Under the pieces are notes generated by a model. That model was not told the origin of the DNA. It saw only the letters and a list, made by a program, of their open reading frames with translations, and made no database searches. The position numbers and the translations under genes were made by a program. A stretch of 11,390 bases of DNA from a virus. Lineage: Duplodnaviria; Heunggongvirae; Uroviricota; Caudoviricetes. The stretch lies in IMG/VR virus record IMGVR_UViG_2690316028_000012; one strand, 5' to 3'. Shown here in pieces: positions 1 through 11,390 of the stretch (position 1 is its first letter; each line of letters opens with the position of its first letter).

Positions 1-1260
1 ATGCCAAAACTCACAGACATGCAGATCCGCGCATGGATAAAGGCCGGGGAGCGATTCGAGGGACGCTCTGACGGTAACGGGCTTTATCTTTCATACCGCG
101 AAAACTACCAGACCCCCGTCTGGCGATTCCGCTATAAATTCGCAGGGAAACCCCGCGCCATGCTGATTGGCTCATATGCCGAGCTATCACTATCAAAGGC
201 CAGAGAGACAGCCAAAGAGCTATCGGCGCGTGTTGCGCTGGGTTATGACGTCGCGGGAGAGAAGCAGGAACGGAAAGCCGAAGCACTGGCGAAGATGGAA
301 GCAGAGAAGAACGCCATGCGCGTTTCAGAGCTTGCCGCTGAATACTTTGAGCGTCAGATCCTCCCGCGCTGGAAGCACCCCGATATACTCCGCCGCCGTA
401 TCGACAAAGATATAAACCCCTGCATTGGCAGCATGAAGGTAGAGGACGTGAAACCGCGCCATATCGATGACATGCTGAAAGGTATTGTTGACCGTGGAGC
501 GCCGACCATAGCAACGGACGTGCTGAGATGGACGCGCCGCATATTCGACTACGGAATCAAACGGCACGCGCTGGAGATTAACCCATGTTCAGCCTTTGAG
601 GTGGCAGACGCCGGAGGGAAAGAAGTTGCCCGTGACCGCTGGTTAACCCGCGATGAGTTAATCCAGCTATTCAAAGCCATGCGCACGGCTAAGGGATTCA
701 GTCGCCAGAACGAAATCACGTTCAAATTACTGTTAGCGTTATGCGTCCGCAAAATGGAGTTATGCGCCGCCCGCTGGGAGGAGTTCGATTTTGATAAAGC
801 TGTATGGCGCTTGCCAGAGGAACGCAGCAAAAACGGCGACGCTATAGACATCCCATTAGCACCGCCAGCCGTCGAATGGCTGAGAGAGCTTAAAACGTTC
901 TCATGCAACAGCGCATGGGTACTGCCAGCCAGAAAGATGCAAAACCGCATGATCCCACATATTCAGGAAAGCACTTTACCCGTAGCACTGGCTAAGGTTC
1001 GCGCCGAAATGCCGGATGTGCCTAATTTCACGATTCACGACTTCCGACGCACCGCACGTACTCATTTAGCAGCGTTGGGTGTTGATCCTGTCGTGGCGGA
1101 ACGATGCCTCAATCATCGCATTAAGGGCGTAGAGGGGATTTATAACCGCCATAAGTATTTTGATGAGCGTAAAGCAGCACTGGCACAGTGGGCTGATCTG
1201 CTGGTGGCACTGGAAAGCGGAAAAGACTACAACGTAACGCCTCTCAGAAGGGCGAACTAA
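1..1260 (+). CDS. int: Tyrosine-type site-specific integrase, P4/CP4-57 family
   Basis: 419-aa ORF. N-terminal region is typical of P4-like integrases (GLYLSY..WRFRYKF). C-terminal catalytic signature is present: R in LALCVRKMELCAARWEEFDF, H-x-x-R in HDFRRTART, and LNHR...GIYNRHKY carrying the catalytic Tyr. Confidence 0.9.
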   Translation: MPKLTDMQIRAWIKAGERFEGRSDGNGLYLSYRENYQTPVWRFRYKFAGKPRAMLIGSYAELSLSKARETAKELSARVALGYDVAGEKQERKAEALAKMEAEKNAMRVSELAAEYFERQILPRWKHPDILRRRIDKDINPCIGSMKVEDVKPRHIDDMLKGIVDRGAPTIATDVLRWTRRIFDYGIKRHALEINPCSAFEVADAGGKEVARDRWLTRDELIQLFKAMRTAKGFSRQNEITFKLLLALCVRKMELCAARWEEFDFDKAVWRLPEERSKNGDAIDIPLAPPAVEWLRELKTFSCNSAWVLPARKMQNRMIPHIQESTLPVALAKVRAEMPDVPNFTIHDFRRTARTHLAALGVDPVVAERCLNHRIKGVEGIYNRHKYFDERKAALAQWADLLVALESGKDYNVTPLRRAN

Positions 1261-1267
1261 CTGAATA

Positions 1268-1323
1268 GATTGAGCCTAGCTCGACGGGGCGAAAAGCGGG
1301 AAGCCTTACCGCCTGGCTCAATC
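1268..1323. repeat. Perfect 9-bp inverted repeat GATTGAGCC / GGCTCAATC separated by 38 bp, in the int-cargo intergenic region
   Basis: 1268-1276 gattgagcc and 1315-1323 ggctcaatc are exact reverse complements. No T-run follows, so it is not a canonical terminator. Confidence 0.35.
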
Positions 1324-1355
1324 ACAAAATAAGGCGCAGCGTAAAAGGTGACGCA

Positions 1356-2321
1356 ATGAACGACTCTCATGAAACAACTGTGGTGCATAGAAATTTATGG
1401 CAGGAATCAGGTATTCCACCTTTGGACTACTGCACGATAGAGCGAGCATCAAAATTATTAAATTGTGAAATTGATGATATATGGCATTGGAAAGATAGAC
1501 TACATATAGACTTTTATGTCTATGCTGACTTTCTTGATTTCATTGAATCTGATGCCACCATCCACTTCAAAAAAGATGCTAATTTTATAACTGATTTATT
1601 ACTTATGTACCCAGAAGAAGTAAGGTTTACATTTCCTTTTCTTATTACCAGCGCAAGCAACGAAGTTTATATCCCAGCATCTGAAAGCGGTGCTTATGAG
1701 CTATTTTATGCACATAAACCACTGACAGTTGAAGACAGCGACAATAAAAATGTTTTTGAACAAATTGGCAAAAACTCTTTTATTGTAAGAAAATCAATTG
1801 CATGTGGATTGTTGCGTGTACGCGGTAGAACAACACGACATTATCATTCACAAGAATGTGGAGAACCATATGTGCGACTTGAAGCAACATTTGATTGTGA
1901 TCTATATAAGTTCAAAATGCAAAGTTCCCAAATTCACCTGAGTAGCCTGTCAGATAAAAACATTTATATAACAAAGGCTGATTTAGAATACCTTCATGAC
2001 GCAAAGGTTAATGGAAGTTTTGACGCAGCTAAGAGCAAAAAACGATACGAAATGGCGGTAGAACAGGAACTAATACCTGAAATAAAAAATAGCAACCATA
2101 ATGCCGAGAGACATGCTGAAAACAGGGAAAAACTTTTCAAATCTGCAATATATCTTTTGTCAAAGTATCCTGATGAATGCCGTGGCAAAAAGAAAGAAAT
2201 AAGCCCTGAGAAGTGGCGGGATTGCATAGTGGCTCATAAAGACGAAATTCCACCGTTAGCAATCACAAATGAAGATGTGATTTTGAGACACTTACGTGCT
2301 GCCGCCAACGGTAAGGGGTAG
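1356..2321 (+). CDS. Hypothetical protein, low-GC cargo gene of unknown function
   Basis: 321-aa ORF with RBS aaaaggtga 7 nt upstream of the ATG. Visibly AT-rich and rich in AAA/AAT/ATT/TTT codons compared with flanking genes. Followed by a strong intrinsic terminator. No catalytic or nucleotide-binding motif recognised by eye. Confidence 0.7.
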   Translation: MNDSHETTVVHRNLWQESGIPPLDYCTIERASKLLNCEIDDIWHWKDRLHIDFYVYADFLDFIESDATIHFKKDANFITDLLLMYPEEVRFTFPFLITSASNEVYIPASESGAYELFYAHKPLTVEDSDNKNVFEQIGKNSFIVRKSIACGLLRVRGRTTRHYHSQECGEPYVRLEATFDCDLYKFKMQSSQIHLSSLSDKNIYITKADLEYLHDAKVNGSFDAAKSKKRYEMAVEQELIPEIKNSNHNAERHAENREKLFKSAIYLLSKYPDECRGKKKEISPEKWRDCIVAHKDEIPPLAITNEDVILRHLRAAANGKG

Positions 2322-2337
2322 AGTAGCTAACTATTCA

Positions 2338-2367
2338 GGCACAGTATCATTACTGTGCCTTTTTATT
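2338..2367 (+). terminator. Rho-independent terminator downstream of the cargo gene
   Basis: 9-bp perfect stem GGCACAGTA / TACTGTGCC with 4-nt loop tcat, immediately followed by TTTTTATT. Confidence 0.75.
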
Positions 2368-2389
2368 GTTCATATATGTACAGATACTT

Positions 2390-2434
2390 CCTCCCGTAAC
2401 GAAGCAACAACTATCGCTAAGAGGTTACGGGAAG
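2390..2434. promoter_or_regulatory. Inverted repeat (cCtCCCGTAAC ... GTTACGGGAAg) spanning the alpA ribosome-binding site; candidate operator or translational-control hairpin
   Basis: 8-bp perfect core CCCGTAAC (2393-2400) / GTTACGGG (2424-2431), 10 of 11 over the extended arms, 23-bp spacer. The 3' arm contains the GGGAAG Shine-Dalgarno of alpA (ATG at 2436). Confidence 0.35.
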
Positions 2435-2435
2435 C

Positions 2436-2639
2436 ATGAACACCGACACTATTCCTACAAAAGGCTATATCAGACGCTTCCGCCTGGCTGAATTGCTGGG
2501 CGTTAGTGTATCCACCATTGATCGCAAAGTTCGCAGCGGCTCGCTACCGCGCCCGGTAAAGCTGGGGGAGAAGATTACCGCCTTTGATGCGGTAGAGATT
2601 AATAACTGGCTGGCGGAGCGCCGGGGAAAGGTGGCGTAA
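2436..2639 (+). CDS. alpA: AlpA-family phage transcriptional regulator (excisionase-like HTH)
   Basis: 67-aa protein with the characteristic AlpA HTH core RLAELLGVSVSTIDRKVRSGSLPRPVKLGEKITAFDAVEINNWL. Confidence 0.85.
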   Translation: MNTDTIPTKGYIRRFRLAELLGVSVSTIDRKVRSGSLPRPVKLGEKITAFDAVEINNWLAERRGKVA

Positions 2640-3073
2640 TGAAAAAGAAAAACCGCCCCGTACAGCAGGCGGATAAATCAGATATTCGCACGTCTGATAT
2701 TACGCCGACCACCAGCCCGGTACAAGTACCTAAGCGAACCCCAAAGAAACACCGCGCCCGCGTCTATATGCTGCGTACTGGTATAGAGGGATGGACAGAA
2801 AACGATATTCTGCGTTATTGCCGCCTTTCGTCTGGAAGGAACTACGCCAGCGAGTTAGAGCGCAGGCTTGATATTCAGCTTGAGCGTATAGACGAAAAGA
2901 ACCCCGACGGGATAGGGTCACATTTACGCTATCGCTTTACCGGGCGCGGTGACGTTCTAAAAGTTATTCGGCTTGTGAACCATAACGCCGACGCTGGCGG
3001 CTATCAGGGACTTTCTCAGCCTGAAATTGCCGACATTCTCAATCTATACCCGGACAATCTCACCGCCGCCTAA
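2639..3073 (+). CDS. Hypothetical protein
   Basis: 144-aa ORF. Its ATG overlaps the alpA stop (TAATG), and RBS aaaggtgg lies upstream. Basic N-terminus. No motif recognised. Confidence 0.55.
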   Translation: MKKKNRPVQQADKSDIRTSDITPTTSPVQVPKRTPKKHRARVYMLRTGIEGWTENDILRYCRLSSGRNYASELERRLDIQLERIDEKNPDGIGSHLRYRFTGRGDVLKVIRLVNHNADAGGYQGLSQPEIADILNLYPDNLTAA

Positions 3074-3085
3074 CGGAGACTGAAA

Positions 3086-3919
3086 ATGAACATCGAAAAA
3101 AGCAGATTAATTTCTGAGGCCGCCCCTCATCTGAACGCCTATCAGGGCACAATTAACGGTAATGAATTTGCCGCAATTGTCCCGGTTATTCCTGGTCATA
3201 TCGGTGGGCGTGAAACCAATATTGTTAGCGCAAAAGCGTTACACAAAGCGTTGGGCGTGGGAAAAGACTTCTCTACATGGATCACTGATCGCATCTCTGA
3301 ATATGACTTCACCATTGGGCACGATTACTCAGTCCATAAAACAATTTCCCCAAATCTGGGGAAAAGCCCGAATGGCACGGCTTACAGCAAGATTAAACAG
3401 TCTGGCAGACCCGGCAAAGACTATCTGTTAAGTGTCGGAATGGCGAAAGAACTGGCGATGGTCGAACGCACCGAACAGGGCCGCGCTATCCGCCGTTATT
3501 TCATCCAGTGCGAGGAAGAATTACAGCGTAGCGTGCCTGAAATCGCCGCCCGCTATCGTCGCCAGCTAAAAGCCCGTATCGGTGCCGCCAACCTGTTTAA
3601 ACCGATGTGCGTAGCGCTGGAAAGCGCCCGCGCAGAACAGGGTAAACAGACGCAGGCTCGCCACTACAGCAACGAGAGCAACATGATCGCCCGTATCGTG
3701 CTGGGTGGCATGACGGCGAAGCAGTGGGCGCAGGCAAATGGCATTACTGGCGAACCACGGGACAGCATGAACGCAGCACAGCTTGAACACCTCGCCTATC
3801 TCGAAAGCACCAATATCACGTTAATTGATATGGGCATGGAATATGAGCAGCGCAAAGGAGAACTCACCCGCCTGTCGCAACGCTGGCTCGCTAAACGTCT
3901 GGAGGTAAACCATGCGTAA
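3086..3919 (+). CDS. Phage antirepressor-like protein with N-terminal AntA/AntB-type domain
   Basis: 277-aa ORF. N-terminal segment SAKALHKALGVGKDFSTWITDRISEYDFTIGHDY resembles the AntA/AntB antirepressor domain consensus as recalled; not searched. Confidence 0.65.
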   Translation: MNIEKSRLISEAAPHLNAYQGTINGNEFAAIVPVIPGHIGGRETNIVSAKALHKALGVGKDFSTWITDRISEYDFTIGHDYSVHKTISPNLGKSPNGTAYSKIKQSGRPGKDYLLSVGMAKELAMVERTEQGRAIRRYFIQCEEELQRSVPEIAARYRRQLKARIGAANLFKPMCVALESARAEQGKQTQARHYSNESNMIARIVLGGMTAKQWAQANGITGEPRDSMNAAQLEHLAYLESTNITLIDMGMEYEQRKGELTRLSQRWLAKRLEVNHA

Positions 3920-4094
3920 CCACAATCCGATGCCGGGAAGCCGTTACAAGGACAGTCACGGGGCTGTAGTGACCGTACAGCGCGTCGAGCATAACCGTGT
4001 GACCTTTTACCGCGAGGGCTATCAGTCGCCATGTGTTCAGCCTTTGGAGAGATTCGTTAATGAGTTCGTGGAGGTGCGCCGTGATACTGAATGA
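3912..4094 (+). CDS. Small hypothetical protein (possibly the DUF4222-like small prophage protein family)
   Basis: 60-aa ORF. Start overlaps the upstream stop in ATGCGTAA, with GGAGGT 5 nt upstream. The family assignment is from memory only. Confidence 0.5.
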   Translation: MRNHNPMPGSRYKDSHGAVVTVQRVEHNRVTFYREGYQSPCVQPLERFVNEFVEVRRDTE

Positions 4095-4381
4095 ACCTGC
4101 CGCCCAGAAAGAAGCCTTTAATCTGGCTGGCATGTTGTCAAAAGTTGACATCTGCAACCTTACAAAACCTGATATTGATACCGCAGCGCCCGGAGTTCCG
4201 TTACCAGTACGCGAGGCGCTTACCCTCAACAAAAAGATGGTGAGCCGTGCACAGGAAAAACTCTTAAAGGGTTACGGTTTTATCTGGTATGACCACCTAG
4301 CAGAGAAAAGCTGTTATAGTCCAAGCGTTGCTGCAAAATCAGCAACCGGGATTGGAACCCCGAACACACTAAGGGCGACAC

Positions 4382-4404
4382 AGACGCCGAAAGCGTCTTT
4401 TTTT
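4382..4404 (+). terminator. Candidate intrinsic terminator inside the operon
   Basis: Stem AGACGC (4382-4387) / GCGTCT (4393-4398), loop cgaaa, followed by a run of seven T to 4404. Confidence 0.5.
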
Positions 4405-4593
4405 GTGTCCGATCACCACGCACATCAAATCAGCGGCCTTGCCCGTACTGTATCTATGGTGGCGTTAGTGGGGCTACGTTCGCGTAGGCCGGTTTCCTTT
4501 GTGTCCGGTAGTTCCAACCCTGCTAACGTCACCGCCACTATTAAGATTGGAACCTTATGCGGTGACTCCTTAAACACAAAGGAGGCTGCCATA

Positions 4594-4785
4594 ATGGCTA
4601 CTACCCCAACCCAAAAACCATCATTTATCTGGTTAATCGCAGCAGTTCGCCGCGATATGCCGACAATTACCGCCAAAATTCACCATATCGCCGCAGAGAC
4701 TGAGCAGGAAGCCCGCCGCATTCTGGCGCGGGATCACGTTTGCTTTTTTGCCGGACGTATTCGCACAGGGGGCGCACATGCTTAA
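4594..4785 (+). CDS. Host cell division inhibitor Icd-like protein (63 aa)
   Basis: Strong RBS aaaggagg 8 nt upstream of ATG 4594. Product MATTPTQKPSFIWLIAAVRRD...EQEARRILARDHVCFFAGRI resembles Icd-like proteins as recalled. The tracker's 250-aa ORF 4033..4785 is the same frame running on upstream with no credible start. Confidence 0.6.
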   Translation: MATTPTQKPSFIWLIAAVRRDMPTITAKIHHIAAETEQEARRILARDHVCFFAGRIRTGGAHA

Positions 4786-4957
4786 TTACTTCCGTGTTGC
4801 AGGATGCGCCACCGCCCGGAGCGGCGAATTAGTCGAGTTCGTTTATATCGTTGACGCCCGCAGCGCGATCAGCGCCAAAGCTGAGGCGCTAAATCAGGCC
4901 AGAAATGAACGCCTTTCCCACATCCAGATTACCCGCATTCGTGAGGTGGCAGCATGA
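4778..4957 (+). CDS. Small hypothetical protein (59 aa from ATG 4778; tracker ORF begins at 4748)
   Basis: ATG 4778 overlaps the Icd-like stop (ATGCTTAA). Its own stop overlaps the next start (ATGA at 4954). Confidence 0.4.
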   Translation: MLNYFRVAGCATARSGELVEFVYIVDARSAISAKAEALNQARNERLSHIQITRIREVAA

Positions 4958-5217
4958 ACATAAATACCATCTACCGCCACCCGGCAGAGCTGGAAGCCGA
5001 AGCGATGCTATCTCGCAAAGAATCATACCCGGATGATTTTACGCTGGCAGACCGAACAGCAGAACGCATGACCCGCGCCCGCAATGGGCTGGATCACGTT
5101 ATGACCGATTTATTACCACTCCTCGAAGTTGAGCAAGCAGCCATCGCGTATTGCTGGCTGAGTAAAGTCCTGACGATTGTCGATATAGCCAGAATTGATG
5201 CGGAGGGCAGCGCATGA
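4954..5217 (+). CDS. Hypothetical protein (87 aa)
   Basis: ATGA start/stop overlap with genes on both sides, co-oriented in the operon. Confidence 0.5.
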   Translation: MNINTIYRHPAELEAEAMLSRKESYPDDFTLADRTAERMTRARNGLDHVMTDLLPLLEVEQAAIAYCWLSKVLTIVDIARIDAEGSA

Positions 5218-5840
5218 GCAACGCACCGACCATTAAATCGGGAAATGCCGACTTATTACACGCCGAAGCCACACCGCACGGCGTCAATATCATGACCCGC
5301 AATGATGCCGGGGGATATGAGCAGGTTGCTCTTATCAGCTACGAGAGCGCCGTGAACGGCCTTGACGCCGGAGAGTACGACGATAAGCCAGATATCGGAT
5401 ACGCCATTCATTTTGCCGTTGCTGATGGCGGGGCGCGTGGCTGGTTCGACTTCACCGCGCAGCATAACGTCACTATGTGGCGCTGGCTGATTGCTGCGAC
5501 GTTCATTTCTGAGATGAAGCGCGAAAACGGCACAACCACGGTAACTGAGTCTGACGGCACTTCATCGCAGGTGGCGATTTACTCCAATGGCACGGCGGGG
5601 ATTGTGGTTTACCCGTTCGCTGAACGTCTGGCGATGGCTAACAACATGGATGGCGCAATGGTTGAGCGCTACGGCATTGAGCAGGGAACAGCGAACGCCA
5701 TTGTTTTTTATCAGGCCATGATCGACACGGAGCGCGGCGAGTTGACCCCGTTTGGGCGTGAAACGCTTGCTGAACTTCACAACAGCTTTATAGCTGAACT
5801 GGATGAAAACGGCTGGCCTGAAATGCCGCTGGCGCACTGA
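5214..5840 (+). CDS. Hypothetical protein (208 aa)
   Basis: ATGA overlap with the upstream gene; long ORF with ordinary codon usage. No motif recognised. Confidence 0.6.
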   Translation: MSNAPTIKSGNADLLHAEATPHGVNIMTRNDAGGYEQVALISYESAVNGLDAGEYDDKPDIGYAIHFAVADGGARGWFDFTAQHNVTMWRWLIAATFISEMKRENGTTTVTESDGTSSQVAIYSNGTAGIVVYPFAERLAMANNMDGAMVERYGIEQGTANAIVFYQAMIDTERGELTPFGRETLAELHNSFIAELDENGWPEMPLAH

Positions 5841-5849
5841 GGGAGCGAC

Positions 5850-6191
5850 ATGATTACTAAAAATTTCCGACTGAATGCGCTGGCGAATAAGTATGCGTCG
5901 GCACTGTATAACCACATTACCTCCACCAGCGGCGGGGACTATTTCATGGTTGATGCGGACGGCCTCGCCGTCCGTGTGGAAATCGTCAATGGAGTAAAAG
6001 GCGTTCGCAGCCTGATCGATAGCTACACACTGGCAGCCATGAAAGTGTTCTACCCGCAGTGGGAAACCGTGGGGATCGAGCTTCTTGATCGTTGCGTCAC
6101 TAAGGACGGATTGACTGACGTCGGGCGCGAGATATGGCAAAGCATGATTAATGATATGGGCGCGACCGTGGCAGGAGGCAACCATGCGTAA
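5850..6191 (+). CDS. Hypothetical protein (113 aa)
   Basis: RBS gaggga upstream of ATG 5850. Stop overlaps the primase start in ATGCGTAA. Confidence 0.55.
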   Translation: MITKNFRLNALANKYASALYNHITSTSGGDYFMVDADGLAVRVEIVNGVKGVRSLIDSYTLAAMKVFYPQWETVGIELLDRCVTKDGLTDVGREIWQSMINDMGATVAGGNHA

Positions 6192-8949
6192 TATCGACCT
6201 TATCCGCGAAGTGACCAGCGCCGCAGCAGGGCGCTGGCCTTATGTGCTGGCTGGATTGTCTATCGACGTGCCTGATTCATCGCGCCGCCATTCTCCATGC
6301 CCTGCATGTGGTGGAAAAGACCGTTTCAGATTCGACGACAACGGGCGCGGTAGCTTTATCTGCAACCAGTGTGGCGCTGGTGACGGGCTGGATTTAATCA
6401 AGCGGGTTAACAACTGCGACACTACGGAGGCGGCACAGCTTGCCGCTGACGTGCTGGGTATTGATTACCAGGCAGCGCAAACCGACCCGGTGGCAGCGAG
6501 CCATAGAAGAGAGCAACTGGAAGCTGACCGCCAGCAGCGTGAGCAGGAGCGCCAGAAACAGGCAGCAGAGGACGCAGAGCAGCGAAGGGCTACGTTTGCC
6601 CATCTGTATGCCGGAATGCGCCAGAGTGCCACACAGGGCGAATCTGATTACCTGCAATCAAAAGGGCTGACCGGGTTTAACTATCCGGTTATGCCGGATG
6701 GTTCGTTATTGCTGGAGCTGGTGGACGAATCCGGCGCAGTGGCAGCAGCGCAAACCATTACACCGCAGGGAGAGAAGCGACTCCTGACAGGTTCAGCAAA
6801 GCGCGGGGCATATCACGCCGTAAACGCGCCAGAATCGCCGCAGAGCGTTTTAATTGCCGAGGGGCTGGCAACCGCTTTATCAGTCCACCTGATGCGCCCT
6901 GACGCGCTGACAGTGTGCGCCATTGATGCGGGCAACCTGCTACCCGTTGCCGAAGTGATGCGCCGGATATATCCAGCCACGCAGATTATCATTGCCGCAG
7001 ATAACGACCACCAGCAGGACGAACAGGCGAACACGGGCAAAGATGCCGCAGAGAAAGCCGCCTTATCCGTGGCTGGCTGGGTGGCACTGCCGCCGACAGA
7101 CTACAAAGCCGACTGGGACGACTACCGCCAGCAAAACGGGCTGGAAGTCGCTACGGCTGCGTTTAACGATTCGATGTACCAGATTCAAGGGGAAGCCGTG
7201 AAACCGCGATTGCAAGCCATTGAGGGCGGTAAAACTGACCATCCAGAGAAAGATCCACTAAAACCCCACATTGAGAGCCGCAAAGATGGCGTTTTCTGGG
7301 TAACGCCGAAGGTGGACAAGGAAAGCGGGGAGATCGTCAACGCTGAAAGCTGGTTATGTTCCCCGTTGGAGGTTATCGGCACGGGACGCGACGACAAAGA
7401 TCAGTATCTTATTATCTCATGGCTGGCATTCGGTGCAGGCATACCGACAACAGCGGCTATCCCGCTGGCTGATATTGGCGAGCGTGAAGGCTGGCGCACC
7501 CTGAAAGCTGGTGGCGTCAACGTCACAACGAAAAACAGCCTACGGGCGATTCTTGCCGACTGGTTACAGCGAAGCGGCTCGCGTGAATTGTGGCGCGTTG
7601 CTCATGCTACAGGCTGGCAGTGCGGGGCATACATCATGCCGGACGGGGAAATCATCGGCACACCTGAGCGGCCTGTTTTGTTCAGCGGGCGCAGTTCAGC
7701 CGCTGCCGGGTATACCGTAGCAGGAACGTCGGAAAGCTGGCGTAACAGTGTTGCGCGGCTGGCATACGGTAATTACGCGATGATGACAGGCATCGCCGCA
7801 GCACTGGCAGCGCCATTAATCGGGGTGGCAGATCGTGACGGATTCGGGATTCATTTTTATGAGCAATCGAGCGCCGGGAAAACAACCACGCAGAACGTGG
7901 CGAGCAGTCTATACGGCAACCCTGATGCCTTGCGCCTGACGTGGTACGGGACGGCGCTGGGGCTGATAAACGAGGCCGCCGCCCACAATGACGGGCTGAT
8001 GCCACTGGATGAAGTCGGACAGGGCGCTGACCCGATAAGCGTTTCTCAGTCTGCCTATGCCCTGTTTAACGGCGTGGGGAAATTGCAGGGAGCAAAGGAA
8101 GGAGGCAACCGGGATCTGAAACGCTGGCGCACCGTGGCAATCAGCACCGGGGAAGTGGACTTAGAAACCTTCATCGCCACCGCCGGACGCAAGACCAAAG
8201 CCGGGCAACTGGTGCGCTTGCTGAATATCCCGTTAAGTAAGGCGGTGCGCTTTCATGAACACCAGACAGGGAAAGAACACGCCGACGCGCTGAAAGATGC
8301 TTATCAGCACCATCATGGCGCTGCCGGGAGGGAGTGGATCAGATGGCTTTCAGACCACCAGCAACAGGCGATTGATGTCGTTCGTGAGTGTGAAGCCCGC
8401 TGGCGCAGTCTAATCCCTGCCGACTATGGGGAACAGGTTCACCGTGTAGGGGCAAGATTTGCCATTCTGGAGGCCGCTTTACTGATGGGTGGCGTGGTTA
8501 CTGGCTGGGATGCTCAAACGTGCCGGGATGCGATACAGCACGCCTATAACGCATGGCTAAAAGAGTTCGGCACGGGGAACAAAGAGCACCAGCAGATCAT
8601 CGAGCAGGCGGAGGCATTTTTAAATGCCTATGGCCTGAGTCGATTCGCGCCGCTGCCTTACGACCCCGCCAGCCTGCCGATTCATAATCTGGCTGGATAC
8701 AGGCAGCGCGGAAATCATGACGATTCACCGATAACGTTTTACACGTTCCCCGACACTTTCGATAAGGATATTGCTAAGGGGTTTAACAGGCAGCAGGTGG
8801 CCCGCGTCCTGAAAGAATCGGGGATGCTTACCCCTTCGGCAGACGGAAAAAAATTTCAGAGGAAAAGCCCGCGCATTCAGGGGAGGCAGATTAACGTTTA
8901 CGTTTTGCAATTCCTGCCGGATGGGGAGGAAAGCCAGCCAGAGCAATAA
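6184..8949 (+). CDS. Replication primase-helicase (P4 alpha-like: zinc-ribbon + TOPRIM primase + DUF927/D5-type NTPase)
   Basis: Start placed at ATG 6184 (AGGAGG 5 nt upstream) rather than the tracker's 6151. C4 zinc ribbon CPACGGKDRFRF...FICNQCG. TOPRIM motifs LIAEGLATALS and IIIAADNDHQ. P-loop-like YEQSSAGKTT and Walker-B-like LMPLDEVG in the C-terminal half. Confidence 0.9.
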   Translation: MRNIDLIREVTSAAAGRWPYVLAGLSIDVPDSSRRHSPCPACGGKDRFRFDDNGRGSFICNQCGAGDGLDLIKRVNNCDTTEAAQLAADVLGIDYQAAQTDPVAASHRREQLEADRQQREQERQKQAAEDAEQRRATFAHLYAGMRQSATQGESDYLQSKGLTGFNYPVMPDGSLLLELVDESGAVAAAQTITPQGEKRLLTGSAKRGAYHAVNAPESPQSVLIAEGLATALSVHLMRPDALTVCAIDAGNLLPVAEVMRRIYPATQIIIAADNDHQQDEQANTGKDAAEKAALSVAGWVALPPTDYKADWDDYRQQNGLEVATAAFNDSMYQIQGEAVKPRLQAIEGGKTDHPEKDPLKPHIESRKDGVFWVTPKVDKESGEIVNAESWLCSPLEVIGTGRDDKDQYLIISWLAFGAGIPTTAAIPLADIGEREGWRTLKAGGVNVTTKNSLRAILADWLQRSGSRELWRVAHATGWQCGAYIMPDGEIIGTPERPVLFSGRSSAAAGYTVAGTSESWRNSVARLAYGNYAMMTGIAAALAAPLIGVADRDGFGIHFYEQSSAGKTTTQNVASSLYGNPDALRLTWYGTALGLINEAAAHNDGLMPLDEVGQGADPISVSQSAYALFNGVGKLQGAKEGGNRDLKRWRTVAISTGEVDLETFIATAGRKTKAGQLVRLLNIPLSKAVRFHEHQTGKEHADALKDAYQHHHGAAGREWIRWLSDHQQQAIDVVRECEARWRSLIPADYGEQVHRVGARFAILEAALLMGGVVTGWDAQTCRDAIQHAYNAWLKEFGTGNKEHQQIIEQAEAFLNAYGLSRFAPLPYDPASLPIHNLAGYRQRGNHDDSPITFYTFPDTFDKDIAKGFNRQQVARVLKESGMLTPSADGKKFQRKSPRIQGRQINVYVLQFLPDGEESQPEQ

Positions 8950-8975
8950 TCTTTTTCACGTGCGAGGTTTTTTGT

Positions 8976-9233
8976 GGTGGTTCAGGTGGTTCAGGTGGTT
9001 CAGTAAGTAATTGTTATTGATTTATAATGTTTTTTTGTAAGAAATTGAACCACCACTGAACCACCAAACGGGTATTTTGAACCACCAGAGAGAAACGGAT
9101 TATTTTCACTGGCTGGCAGTGAACCACCAAGAAGGGCGACTGAACCACCAGATAAATTTAAAAGGTGGTTCAGCAAAACCCAGAGTTGGCGCGGCCTAGA
9201 GGGGTACTGAACCACTGAACCACCTGAACCACC
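8976..9233. repeat. Iteron cluster (GGTGGTTCAG / CTGAACCACC, ~12 copies in both orientations) flanking an AT-rich segment; probable replication origin
   Basis: Forward copies at 8976, 8985, 8994 (tandem, 9-bp period) and 9164. Reverse copies at 9046, 9056, 9078, 9120, 9140, 9207 (partial), 9216, 9225. AT-rich stretch at 9004-9046. Sits immediately 3' of the primase gene. Confidence 0.8.
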
Positions 9234-9337
9234 AACTTTTTTGTTTATATACCAATAAATCTGGCGAAGGTGTCCCACAATAAGACGGAGCCGGGTAATC
9301 TTCATTAGCAAAACTAATAATTCGAGGTATTCGCAAA

Positions 9338-9799
9338 ATGACAGCACAGATATCAGCCTACGGGCGGCTGGTGGCAGATCCCCAGACCAGAACGACAAAC
9401 AGCGGCGGCAGCATGGCAATGGGACGGTTAGCGGTGGCACTGCCCTGCCATGCAGCAGAGGGCGGAGAGGTTACTTTCTGGCTGGGCGTGGTGGCATTCG
9501 GCAAACAGGCCGACGCACTGGCAGGGCACGTTAAAGGCGATTTAGTCAGTGTTGCCGGAGCGATGCAGATCAATCAGTGGACGGGCAAGGATGGCGGTAC
9601 ACAGCAAGGTTATCAGGTAGTAGCCGACAGTGTGATCAGCGCCAGAACGGTACGCCCCGGCGGGAAGCGGGCCGAATCAGTCAAAGCAAGCGGAGCCAGC
9701 AGAGGCCACGCAACACAATCCGCGCCGGGATGGGAGTTATATAACACCCCTGATGATTTTGACCAGCGCCCGCCGTTTGATGATGAAGATCCATTCTGA
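9338..9799 (+). CDS. ssb: Single-stranded DNA-binding protein (SSB)
   Basis: 153-aa ORF. OB-fold region aligns by eye with E. coli SSB (GRLVADPQTRTTNSGG; VVAFGKQADALAGHVKGDLVSVAGAMQINQWTGKDGG). Acidic C-terminal tail ends DDEDPF (canonical SSB tail is DDDIPF). Confidence 0.8.
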   Translation: MTAQISAYGRLVADPQTRTTNSGGSMAMGRLAVALPCHAAEGGEVTFWLGVVAFGKQADALAGHVKGDLVSVAGAMQINQWTGKDGGTQQGYQVVADSVISARTVRPGGKRAESVKASGASRGHATQSAPGWELYNTPDDFDQRPPFDDEDPF

Positions 9800-9810
9800 G
9801 GGGGATACAC

Positions 9811-10122
9811 ATGGTAAACGACAGGAAAGCCGAGGAACTGGAAGCAAAGGGGCTGTATCGCAGGGCAGCTACACGCTGGCAGGAAGTCATGATGATTTGT
9901 GCTGAGGACGATGATCGGGAATGGGTAAAGCAGCGACGTGATACGTGTCTGACGAACGTGAAGCGCCCGCCAGTGAAAACCGATGATTACGGCGATCTGC
10001 ATAAAGCAGTCACTGAGACACAACACCGCATGGGGATAGCGCAACCAAACGGCAACGCCTTCCGATTAAACGGTGGTAAGAAGCAACGACAGGCCACCAG
10101 CGGGGGCGACAGTTCGCAGTAA
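9811..10122 (+). CDS. PerC-family transcriptional regulator-like protein
   Basis: 103-aa ORF. N-terminus KAEELEAKGLYRRAATRWQEVMM matches the PerC/Pch family signature as recalled. RBS gaggggga upstream. Confidence 0.7.
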   Translation: MVNDRKAEELEAKGLYRRAATRWQEVMMICAEDDDREWVKQRRDTCLTNVKRPPVKTDDYGDLHKAVTETQHRMGIAQPNGNAFRLNGGKKQRQATSGGDSSQ

Positions 10123-10536
10123 GGTTCGCACCAAAACGGCTGTAAATTCTGTACTGTTCTTGACAGATTTTAAACCCTCGTAGCGCTAAACCCGCGCCAG
10201 TCGCGGGCTGGAAGCCAGAACGTGATTTAGGTTGTCCATAATATTCTGGTTCGCGCCACTGGTTCGCAGTACGCAGTCAGGTACGCGGCAAAACTGCGCA
10301 TTCAGCGTGCGTACCATCTGACGGATTCTAACGGCGGCAATGCGATTTGCGCAGTTCACAAAAAATCTGCGCAAAACGAAACGGATACCAATGCGCAAAC
10401 CATCCTCAACCCCGCGCGGTTACTGGCTTTATTGATGTGAAATTGCAAAATTGGTGCGCAATTTACAGTAAAATACGCATATTATTTCGTATTCAATTTG
10501 CGCACCGTTCGCAGTTAATGCGCAGTAATTCGCAGG
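10113..10536. repeat. Array of at least 10 TGCGCA / TTCGCAGT(A) motifs in a ~420-bp non-coding block; candidate regulator- or replication-protein-binding array
   Basis: TTCGCAGTAA at 10113; GGTTCGCACC at 10123; GGTTCGCGCC at 10248; GGTTCGCAGTA at 10261; TGCGCA at 10294; TGCGCAGT at 10348; TGCGCAAA at 10368 and 10392; TGCGCAAT at 10455; TGCGCAC at 10499; TTCGCAGTT at 10508; TGCGCAGTAA at 10519; TTCGCAGG at 10529. Also a TTGACA at 10160 and a GC palindrome CCCGCG-ccagt-CGCGGG at 10191-10207. Confidence 0.5.
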
Positions 10537-10546
10537 AGGCCAGCCA

Positions 10547-10747
10547 GTGAGAGACAGAACGCGCAGCTATACCACCGACCTGCCCCGTATAGGGTTGCCA
10601 TTCCTTACGAACATGCGTCGCAGGCTGACGGACGCCGAACCGGGTACACAGCTTTATACCCAGACCGAAAGCGGAACGTTGTATACCTTCCGGCAAGCCG
10701 ACAGCTACGCCATTGCCGCCCAGTCGGCATTATCTGGAAGGGAATAG
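10547..10747 (+). CDS. Small hypothetical protein (66 aa), GTG start
   Basis: AGGAGG at 10534-10539, 7 nt upstream of GTG 10547. No recognisable motif. Confidence 0.4.
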   Translation: MRDRTRSYTTDLPRIGLPFLTNMRRRLTDAEPGTQLYTQTESGTLYTFRQADSYAIAAQSALSGRE

Positions 10748-10750
10748 CTT

Positions 10751-10769
10751 GCAATTGATAATCATTATC
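10751..10769. promoter_or_regulatory. Fur-box-like palindrome (gcaattGATAATCATTATC)
   Basis: 16 of 19 positions match the Fur consensus GATAATGATAATCATTATC, with a perfect GATAAT-c-ATTATC inverted hexamer core. Target transcript unknown. Confidence 0.4.
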
Positions 10770-11030
10770 TTTTCGGGTCCTTTCCGGCGATCCGCCCTGT
10801 TACGGGGCGGCGTCCGCGCAGATTCTCGATATATATGAGAATTTTTCTGGTTTTTGCCGTTTCCGTTCTTCTTCATGCTATCTCTCTGTTTTTGCAGGAA
10901 ACACACCCTCAAAAGAAAGGGAATGGCTAGGCCTTAAAAACGGTAATTTTCCATTTGTTGTTTCCTTTCTCTGTTTTTCGCCTGGAGTTCGTCATGGAGG
11001 TTAATAAAAAACGCCCTGTGAATCATCGCT

Positions 11031-11390
11031 TTAACCAACCCGCTCGCATTCTCCATCAATCGCGTTATCAGCGCCGCCAGTATCGCGCATAACAGCACAT
11101 TGACCGGGTAAACCATAGCGCACGACCGTTGCGTTAGTTTCACCGCCACGCTTTACCTGACGAGATTCATACACTGTCACACGCCCCAGTAGCCCACCGG
11201 CAACCATGCTTTCGAGCGTGCGCCGTGTAGATTCGAGCTGGTGGCGCTTATCGAACGACACCATGCCATGAAGCAGGTAGGCCACACCCGACACATCGAA
11301 CGGCGGCGCACCAATCTCACCCGTCACCAATTCGAGGTTATCCGGCTCAAAGTAGCTGAGTATCATCTTTTTACGGCTGGTCATTCTCAT
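11031..11390 (-). CDS. Hypothetical protein (119 aa), convergent with the island genes; start coincides with the window edge, so the N-terminus may be cut
   Basis: Intact 360-nt minus-strand ORF with ordinary GC content. Not recognised by eye. Confidence 0.5.
   Translation of the reverse strand: MRMTSRKKMILSYFEPDNLELVTGEIGAPPFDVSGVAYLLHGMVSFDKRHQLESTRRTLESMVAGGLLGRVTVYESRQVKRGGETNATVVRYGLPGQCAVMRDTGGADNAIDGECERVG

Follow-up and report, generated by a model that had tools for sequence, protein, structure and literature searches.

A probable lambda-type cos module, with a Fur-type palindrome beside cosQ, in a PICI-type satellite

Cos-bearing satellites and the island

SaPIbov5, which relies on cos phages, and P4, which relies on the P2 cos, are self-replicating satellites that carry the cos of their helper in unmodified form and are cut and packaged by the helper terminase. 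In the described cos PICIs of Escherichia coli, among them the experimentally studied EcCICFT073, cosB is of a non-phage kind and rpp comes after it (Fillol-Salom 2018, 2019; Murialdo & Feiss 2022). PICIs replicate to concatemers, and cloned cos fragments suffice for transfer mediated by lambda or phi80. For the cos site itself, published work has defined the packaging-termination subsite cosQ, the dyad symmetry of cosN together with its natural variation at bp 7–12, and the role of R3 in cosB as a repeat bound by TerS. The spacing between cosN and cosB has been reported to be critical, a 3-bp deletion being severe, and the cohesive ends of N15 and lambda have been reported to differ at bp 9 and 12, a difference that both terminases tolerate.

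We analyzed a stretch of 11,390 nucleotides of viral DNA (IMGVR_UViG_2690316028_000012), hereafter called the window. It encoded an integrase, AlpA, AntA, an Ash/Icd-like protein, a DUF927 primase-helicase, SSB, and PerC, and structural genes were absent. The features by which Gram-negative PICIs are recognized (int, alpA, primase/replication genes, a length of 10–15 kb, a specific att site, and no phage structural or lysis genes) were all found, and the architecture of the left half matched that of EcCICFT073. Positions 1031–11390 were 100% identical over 10,360 bp to the NCBI assembly GCA_012234585.1. The island site lies between yicC and dinD, and the island ends are repeats of the yicC 3′ end; we estimate the length of the island at ~11.8 kb. 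Although the island resembles SaPIbov5 and P4 in carrying a helper-type cos, these belong to different phage families and have other cos types. A P4-like satellite was considered and rejected, as no P2/P4-type 19-nt cos was present at ≤3 mismatches and the Psu, Sid, and Delta families were not found.

The region of interest lies near the right end of the island. As the preliminary description had it, about 280 bp separate two convergent ORFs, one at 10547–10747 on the plus strand and the other at 11031–11390 on the minus strand; neither the 66-aa product of the former nor the 119-aa product of the latter had a family match in Pfam, PHROG, NCBIfam, or PADLOC. The same description allowed that the region might be the island boundary or host DNA. 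This proved not to be so: island sequence was present on both sides and attR was located ~205 bp past the end of the window, so that the region, ~790 bp from the right end of the island, lies inside it.

Three further observations concern other parts of such islands. An AT-rich segment of the window (1251–2321; GC 0.34–0.39) contains a 321-aa ORF between int and alpA that had no Pfam or PHROG family and a faint PADLOC match alone (PDC-S31, E = 0.002), and that is probably accessory cargo. Upstream of the 66-aa ORF, positions 10450–10530 hold TGCGCA-rich inverted repeats (GGTGCGCAATTT / AATTTGCGCACC, with more GCGCA copies), a possible operator or origin-like element. In the related island of E. 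coli ET479, GGTGTACAC(C)/GGGTGTACCCAC repeats adjoin both att sites (locus positions 3330–3400 and 15690–15720) and probably represent arm-type integrase-binding sites.

The probable lambda-type cos module

A megablast search of the whole window against phage genomes matched positions 10751–10988 to the extreme end of the mEp237 and HK225 records (82% and 81% identity, respectively), both of which start with the small terminase gene. In megablast and blastn searches, the segment matched exclusively the cos regions of lambdoid phages, including phi80, lambda, 434, 21, N15, and Stx1a phages, and with a more sensitive search the matching phage records numbered 107, among them those of lambda, 434, phi80, 21, N15, DE3, and Stx1a phages. 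Several of the matching records label the stretch "cos site", "sticky end", or Nu1. With the circularized junction (48383–48502 joined to 1–260) as the lambda reference, positions ~10750–11013 aligned base for base with the cos junctions of lambda, mEp237, HK225, phi80, 21, and N15, and phage homology stopped at about 11013. Three- and four-way alignments revealed that all cos subsites were present and in order: palindrome, cosQ, cosN, I2, R3, I1, R2, and R1. The features of the locus are as follows.

10547–10747, plus strand: truncated island ORF (66 aa), diverging at ~10713 and ending 3 bp before the 19-bp Fur-box match
10714–11037, plus strand: acquired cos module (324 bp), absent from cos-less island relatives (blastn against the E. 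coli ET479 island)
10751–10769, no strand: 19-bp Fur-box match, 16/19 to the consensus
10756–10770, no strand: 7-1-7 dyad TGATAATCATTATCT, the leftmost conserved element of lambda-type cos modules in the alignments
10775–10781, plus strand: cosQ (GGGTCCT), packaging-termination subsite, located, as in lambda, 30 bp ahead of the first base of the cohesive end
10803–10818, plus strand: cosN (CG / GGGCGGCGTCCG / CG), from the alignment; cleavage predicted
10822–10850, plus strand: I2-equivalent between cosN and R3, aligned with lambda bp 18–45
10857–10874, plus strand: cosB R3, TerS-binding repeat, with the core TTTCCGTTC of lambda bp 55–63
10875–10910, plus strand: I1-equivalent spacer between R3 and R2, scanned for the IHF consensus
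10911–10926, minus strand: cosB R2, inverted and diverged from lambda in the alignment (AGAAAGGGAATGG vs AGAAAGGAAACG)
10958–10973, plus strand: cosB R1 (TTGTTTCCTTTCTCTG), from the alignments
10994–11011, plus strand: vestige of the terS (Nu1) start (ATGGAGGTTAATAAAAAA), encoding MEVNKK, with R as the next codon as in mEp237
11031–11390, minus strand: last island ORF (119 aa), converging on cos

Of the elements that characterize a lambda-type cos site, cosQ was found at the expected distance from cosN, and cosN had the partial dyad symmetry and the flanking CG dinucleotides that are conserved there. The predicted 12-nt 5′ cohesive end (10805–10816) was of the N15/mEp237 type; it was identical to that of lambda at bp 1–8 and differed at bp 9 and 12 only. 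Besides the subsites and their order, the island shared with lambda, mEp237, and HK225 the sequence of cosQ, its 30-bp distance from the end, the left half of cosN, the R3 core, R1, the palindrome upstream of cosQ, and an equivalent position of the terS ATG (cos position 190 here and 191 in lambda). The lambda Nu1 recognition helix was also present in mEp237 TerS. The putative cosB layout was R3-I1-R2-R1: R3 and R1 were clear, R2 was diverged and inverted, and R2 and R1 together formed an inverted repeat. In comparison with lambda, the R3 core was at bp 56–64, that is, 1 bp farther from cosN, the I1-equivalent had no IHF consensus at ≤2 mismatches, terS was cut after 6–7 codons, and the site resided in a satellite rather than in a phage.

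The preliminary description had also drawn two small hairpins in this region, CCGCCC-tgttacg-GGGCGG (10792–10810) and ATTCTC-gatatatat-GAGAAT (10822–10846). Both are present, but neither stood out as an RNA element when compared with shuffled sequences (z = −1.3 and −1.5). The first is the dyad symmetry of cosN, the nicking site of terminase, and the second falls inside the conserved I2 segment. Across 103 unique lambda-type cos sites, which we sampled from IMG/VR by anchoring on cosQ and not on the palindrome, the I2 sequence CGCTATTTATGA was kept across lineages, whereas the dyad pairing was not. A terminator scan gave nothing at 10792–10860, no sigma-70-like promoter was found on either strand of 10400–11390, and an Rfam search of the region returned no family at E ≤ 1. 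Like single-strand folding, these scans gave no sign of an sRNA or an intrinsic terminator.

Acquisition and predicted use of the module

When the closely related ET479 island was compared with the window by blastn, homology ended at 10713 and resumed at 11038; where the window has 10714–11037, ET479 carries 946 bp of other sequence. This replaced stretch includes an intact 203-aa ORF, whose version in the window is cut to 66 aa, and neither cosQ, cosN, nor the Fur-like palindrome was found anywhere in the ET479 island. The absence of cos from ET479 and the intact state of its ORF suggest that the 324-bp module is a replacement acquired from a phage. Judged from the sequence, it is highly probable that the "intergenic region" of 280 bp represents an entire cos site of the lambda type, which a PICI-type satellite of ~11.8 kb in the yicC 3′ end gained, along with the first 6–7 codons of terS, when it recombined with an mEp237/lambda-like phage. 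In the cos-less relative (ET479 locus 14001–15206), the 203-aa ORF, which is accompanied by an ORF of ~80 aa, contains a CPHC...CREC zinc-ribbon-like motif and had no match in Pfam, PHROG, NCBIfam, or PADLOC.

The cos-bearing form of the island was found in none of 5426 complete E. coli genomes. The closest E. coli copies of the module (82–84% identity) were in prophages and adjoined terS. The exact 324-bp module was nevertheless identical in five independent samples. A separate case of mosaicism was seen in IMGVR_UViG_3300011920_000004, which is 95% identical to positions 10709–10845 of the window, from the palindrome through cosQ, cosN, and I2; beyond I2 its cosB is a different one, and the 168-aa TerS encoded next belongs to a distinct type with an AFDKWGV motif, which places the mosaic joint of this locus between I2 and R3.

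Because the variant that carries cos is uncommon and arose at the cost of an island ORF, which the insertion truncated, it may reflect a chance event of recent date and not an adaptation. In the extreme case, the module would be an inert scar: the island would have undergone an abortive recombination with a lambdoid prophage, and the cos sequence left behind would be non-functional and play no role in island transfer. The destruction of terS, the 1-bp longer cosN–R3 spacing, the diverged R2, and the I1 segment devoid of an IHF consensus are also in keeping with this idea. However, the module consists of a full cos with hardly anything added, it retains intact copies of cosQ, of the left cosN half, of the core of R3, and of R1, and it occupies the slot after PerC in which EcCICFT073 has its packaging module. 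Moreover, the same sequence recurs in the five samples, and small cloned cos fragments are enough for transfer. We therefore consider a mere scar unlikely.

If the module is instead a working cos site, growth of a helper of lambda specificity would allow the small terminase subunit of the helper to bind R3, R2, and R1, and the large subunit would then nick cosN at two positions separated by 12 bp, which would produce GGGCGGCGTCCG as a 5′ overhang that begins at 10805. Concatemers of the island would be packaged rightwards until the head is full, with ~3–4 island copies, and cosQ together with cosN would then terminate packaging. The estimate of 3–4 copies per head follows from the estimated island length and the head-filling rule. 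No specificity-switching protein would be needed, because cosB is phage-like.

This last point distinguishes the island from PICIs of the EcCICFT073 (Rpp) type. The two have in common int, AlpA/HTH, Icd-like, primase, SSB, and PerC genes, after which, close to the right end, come a cosQ and a cosN that resemble those of lambda, and packaging by a lambda/phi80-type terminase would be expected. In EcCICFT073, however, a non-phage cosB and then rpp follow, capsid-like genes are present, and the Fur palindrome is absent, whereas in the window R3/R2/R1 are of the phage type and neither rpp nor capsid genes are present. Downstream of its cos there is an ORF on the opposite strand in the place of rpp. 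A six-frame tblastn search of the window with EcCICFT073 Rpp, a query that we had checked against RppC (6HLK; E = 5e-31), gave a best E-value of 0.76, and none of three candidate ORFs of the window matched RppC in a comparison with the PDB. No genes for capsid-size redirection were found in the island. The phage-type cosB and the lack of an Rpp match in the window suggest that the island uses the simpler strategy of copying the cos of its helper, as do SaPIbov5 and P4. By its sequence, then, the island is a satellite with a helper-type cos, an already known kind of element, which differs from Rpp-type PICIs in its phage-type cosB, the lack of rpp, and the Fur palindrome.

The Fur-type palindrome beside cosQ

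The starting point of the preliminary description was a 19-bp Fur-box match with 16 agreeing positions, and this was reproduced: GCAATTGATAATCATTATC (10751–10769) had three mismatches to the Fur consensus GATAATGATAATCATTATC. It was the only match at ≤3 mismatches in the window, where 0.01 are expected by chance, and 2 of 200 shuffled sequences scored such a match. Read as a 7-1-7 dyad, for which the consensus is reportedly TGATAATNATTATCA, the element is TGATAATCATTATCT (10756–10770) and agreed at 13 of 14 positions, again as the only match at ≤3 mismatches in the whole window. Its core GATAATCATTATC was the same in the lambda alignment.

The palindrome is a common companion of lambda-type cos sites. 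We grouped the 103 cosQ-anchored sites by their unrelated far-upstream flanks into 15 independent families, and TGATAATNATTATCA was present at ≤3 mismatches in 12 of them, at a distance of 3–8 bp from cosQ (chance expectation, 0.00065 per family). Homology between lineages started at the left edge of the palindrome, while its central base varied among families. It was missing from the functional cos1 and cos2 of EcCICFT073 and from some phage lineages; judging by these sites, it is dispensable for packaging. In three palindrome-less cos lineages (IMG/VR families L011, L017, and L054), a CCAGAAC/GTTCTGG motif was seen just upstream of cosQ, and EcCICFT073 cos1 has a terminator-like hairpin in the place of the palindrome (locus 12480–12530).

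Homologous copies have been reported to bind Fur. Chen et al. (2007) described a Fur cluster at nohA −233 (22.3 bits), which was gel-shifted with 150 nM Fur and had been cloned earlier by in vivo Fur titration, and predicted another at nohB (25.3 bits). The coordinates given there (1634624 and 579824) are the exact centers of the palindromes next to cosQ in the Qin and DLP12 prophages; the nohA oligonucleotide was placed by its coordinates. In CFT073, a Fur ChIP-exo peak obtained under iron-replete conditions (P53, 1424699–1424711; Gao et al. 2023) overlapped the palindrome located 7 bp from cosQ of a prophage. The published sites at nohA (Qin), nohB/nohD (DLP12), and P53 thus occupy the homologous position, 4–7 bp upstream of cosQ. 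The 13-bp core of the Qin nohA −233 site was identical to that of the window palindrome, and its 19-bp score was also 16/19. No peak is listed at the Qin or DLP12 palindromes in the MG1655 ChIP-exo data (Gao et al. 2023), which may be attributable to multi-mapping of two near-identical copies. No link between these Fur sites and cos, including a Fur box at lambda cos, was found in the searchable literature.

Several observations were made on genes near such palindromes. The genes ynfO, ydfO, ybcV, and ybcW, which are divergent from the Qin/DLP12 palindromes, had large log2 changes, of unchecked sign and read counts, in the W3110 fur DESeq table (Gao et al. 2023, Dataset 3). In an E. coli YPE10 prophage (locus 776–1504), a gene ending 3 bp before the palindrome region is named "Fur-regulated protein" by PGAP, with no NCBIfam HMM match, and in the CFT073 prophage a "TonB family protein" gene is situated just upstream of cos (locus 1–81). 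The latter two hint at iron-related cargo beside lambdoid cos sites.

Since Fur binding to homologous copies is documented both in vitro and in vivo, Fe-Fur probably occupies the island copy as well; the palindrome itself most likely came along with cos. The earlier Fur reading therefore survives as regards the credibility of the site but not as regards a promoter or a gene under its control in the island. Indeed, the adjoining promoter of an iron-regulated gene that a Fur box would imply was not seen, as the flanking ORFs converge and a promoter-like site is absent. In the prophages, the Fur site precedes a terS homologue by 233 bp and is ~150 bp from the divergent ynfO/ylcI, whereas the island has lost terS and the site has no gene start to its left or right.

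What the palindrome might do at cos can be read in three ways, each of low probability. In the first, the Fur-binding dyad would be a functional, unappreciated subsite of lambda-family cos, at which Fe-Fur, bound 3–8 bp from cosQ, would make packaging termination, or read-through into the genes for terminase, depend on the iron status of the host, and the satellite would have inherited this arrangement; we regard this as quite improbable. In the second, which we hold to be very improbable, the palindrome would be a packaging subsite that terminase or some other protein of the phage reads, and it would resemble a Fur box by coincidence. Its retention right beside cosQ in most lambda-type cos lineages, in which the farther flanks are unrelated, speaks for such a role. 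However, it is absent not only from the functional EcCICFT073 cos sites but also from several phage lineages with a lambda-like cosB and Nu1, its distance from cosQ varies by several bp, whereas the cosN–cosB distance is reportedly critical, and Fur binding to homologous copies was shown directly. cosQ is said to be confined to 7 bp.

The third and scarcely credible reading is that of the preliminary description, a Fur-repressed promoter driving an iron-responsive small RNA or short peptide from an intergenic region: the Fur-box match is good, homologous sites bind Fur, a sigma-70 model led Chen et al. to select the site at nohA as a candidate promoter under Fur control, and a 33-codon ORF begins at 10994, but the searched interval held no sigma-70-like promoter and no Rfam family, the hairpins were no better than those of shuffled sequences, known cos subsites account for every conserved block, no gene start adjoins the box, the flanking genes converge on the site, and the 33-codon ORF consists of the first 6–7 terS codons fused to unrelated sequence.

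On the preferred reading, that of an acquired cos module, the region should be annotated as the cos packaging site of the satellite, with a predicted 12-nt overhang at 10805–10816, and neither a regulatory role nor the island boundary should be assigned to it. The nohA and nohB/nohD sites, which are among the strongest predicted Fur sites of K-12, and the CFT073 peak are copies of one conserved palindrome, which most lambda-type cos sites, that of lambda included, have next to cosQ. Were Fur binding at cos functional, transfer would be iron-responsive for the satellite as well as for its helper. For the satellites themselves, the module suggests that an EcCICFT073-like island can exchange its packaging module for a plain lambda-type helper cos with a phage cosB and without Rpp. 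Such a copied-cos route would be simpler than the Rpp redirection of E. coli PICIs and predicts helpers of the lambda, phi80, or mEp237 type.
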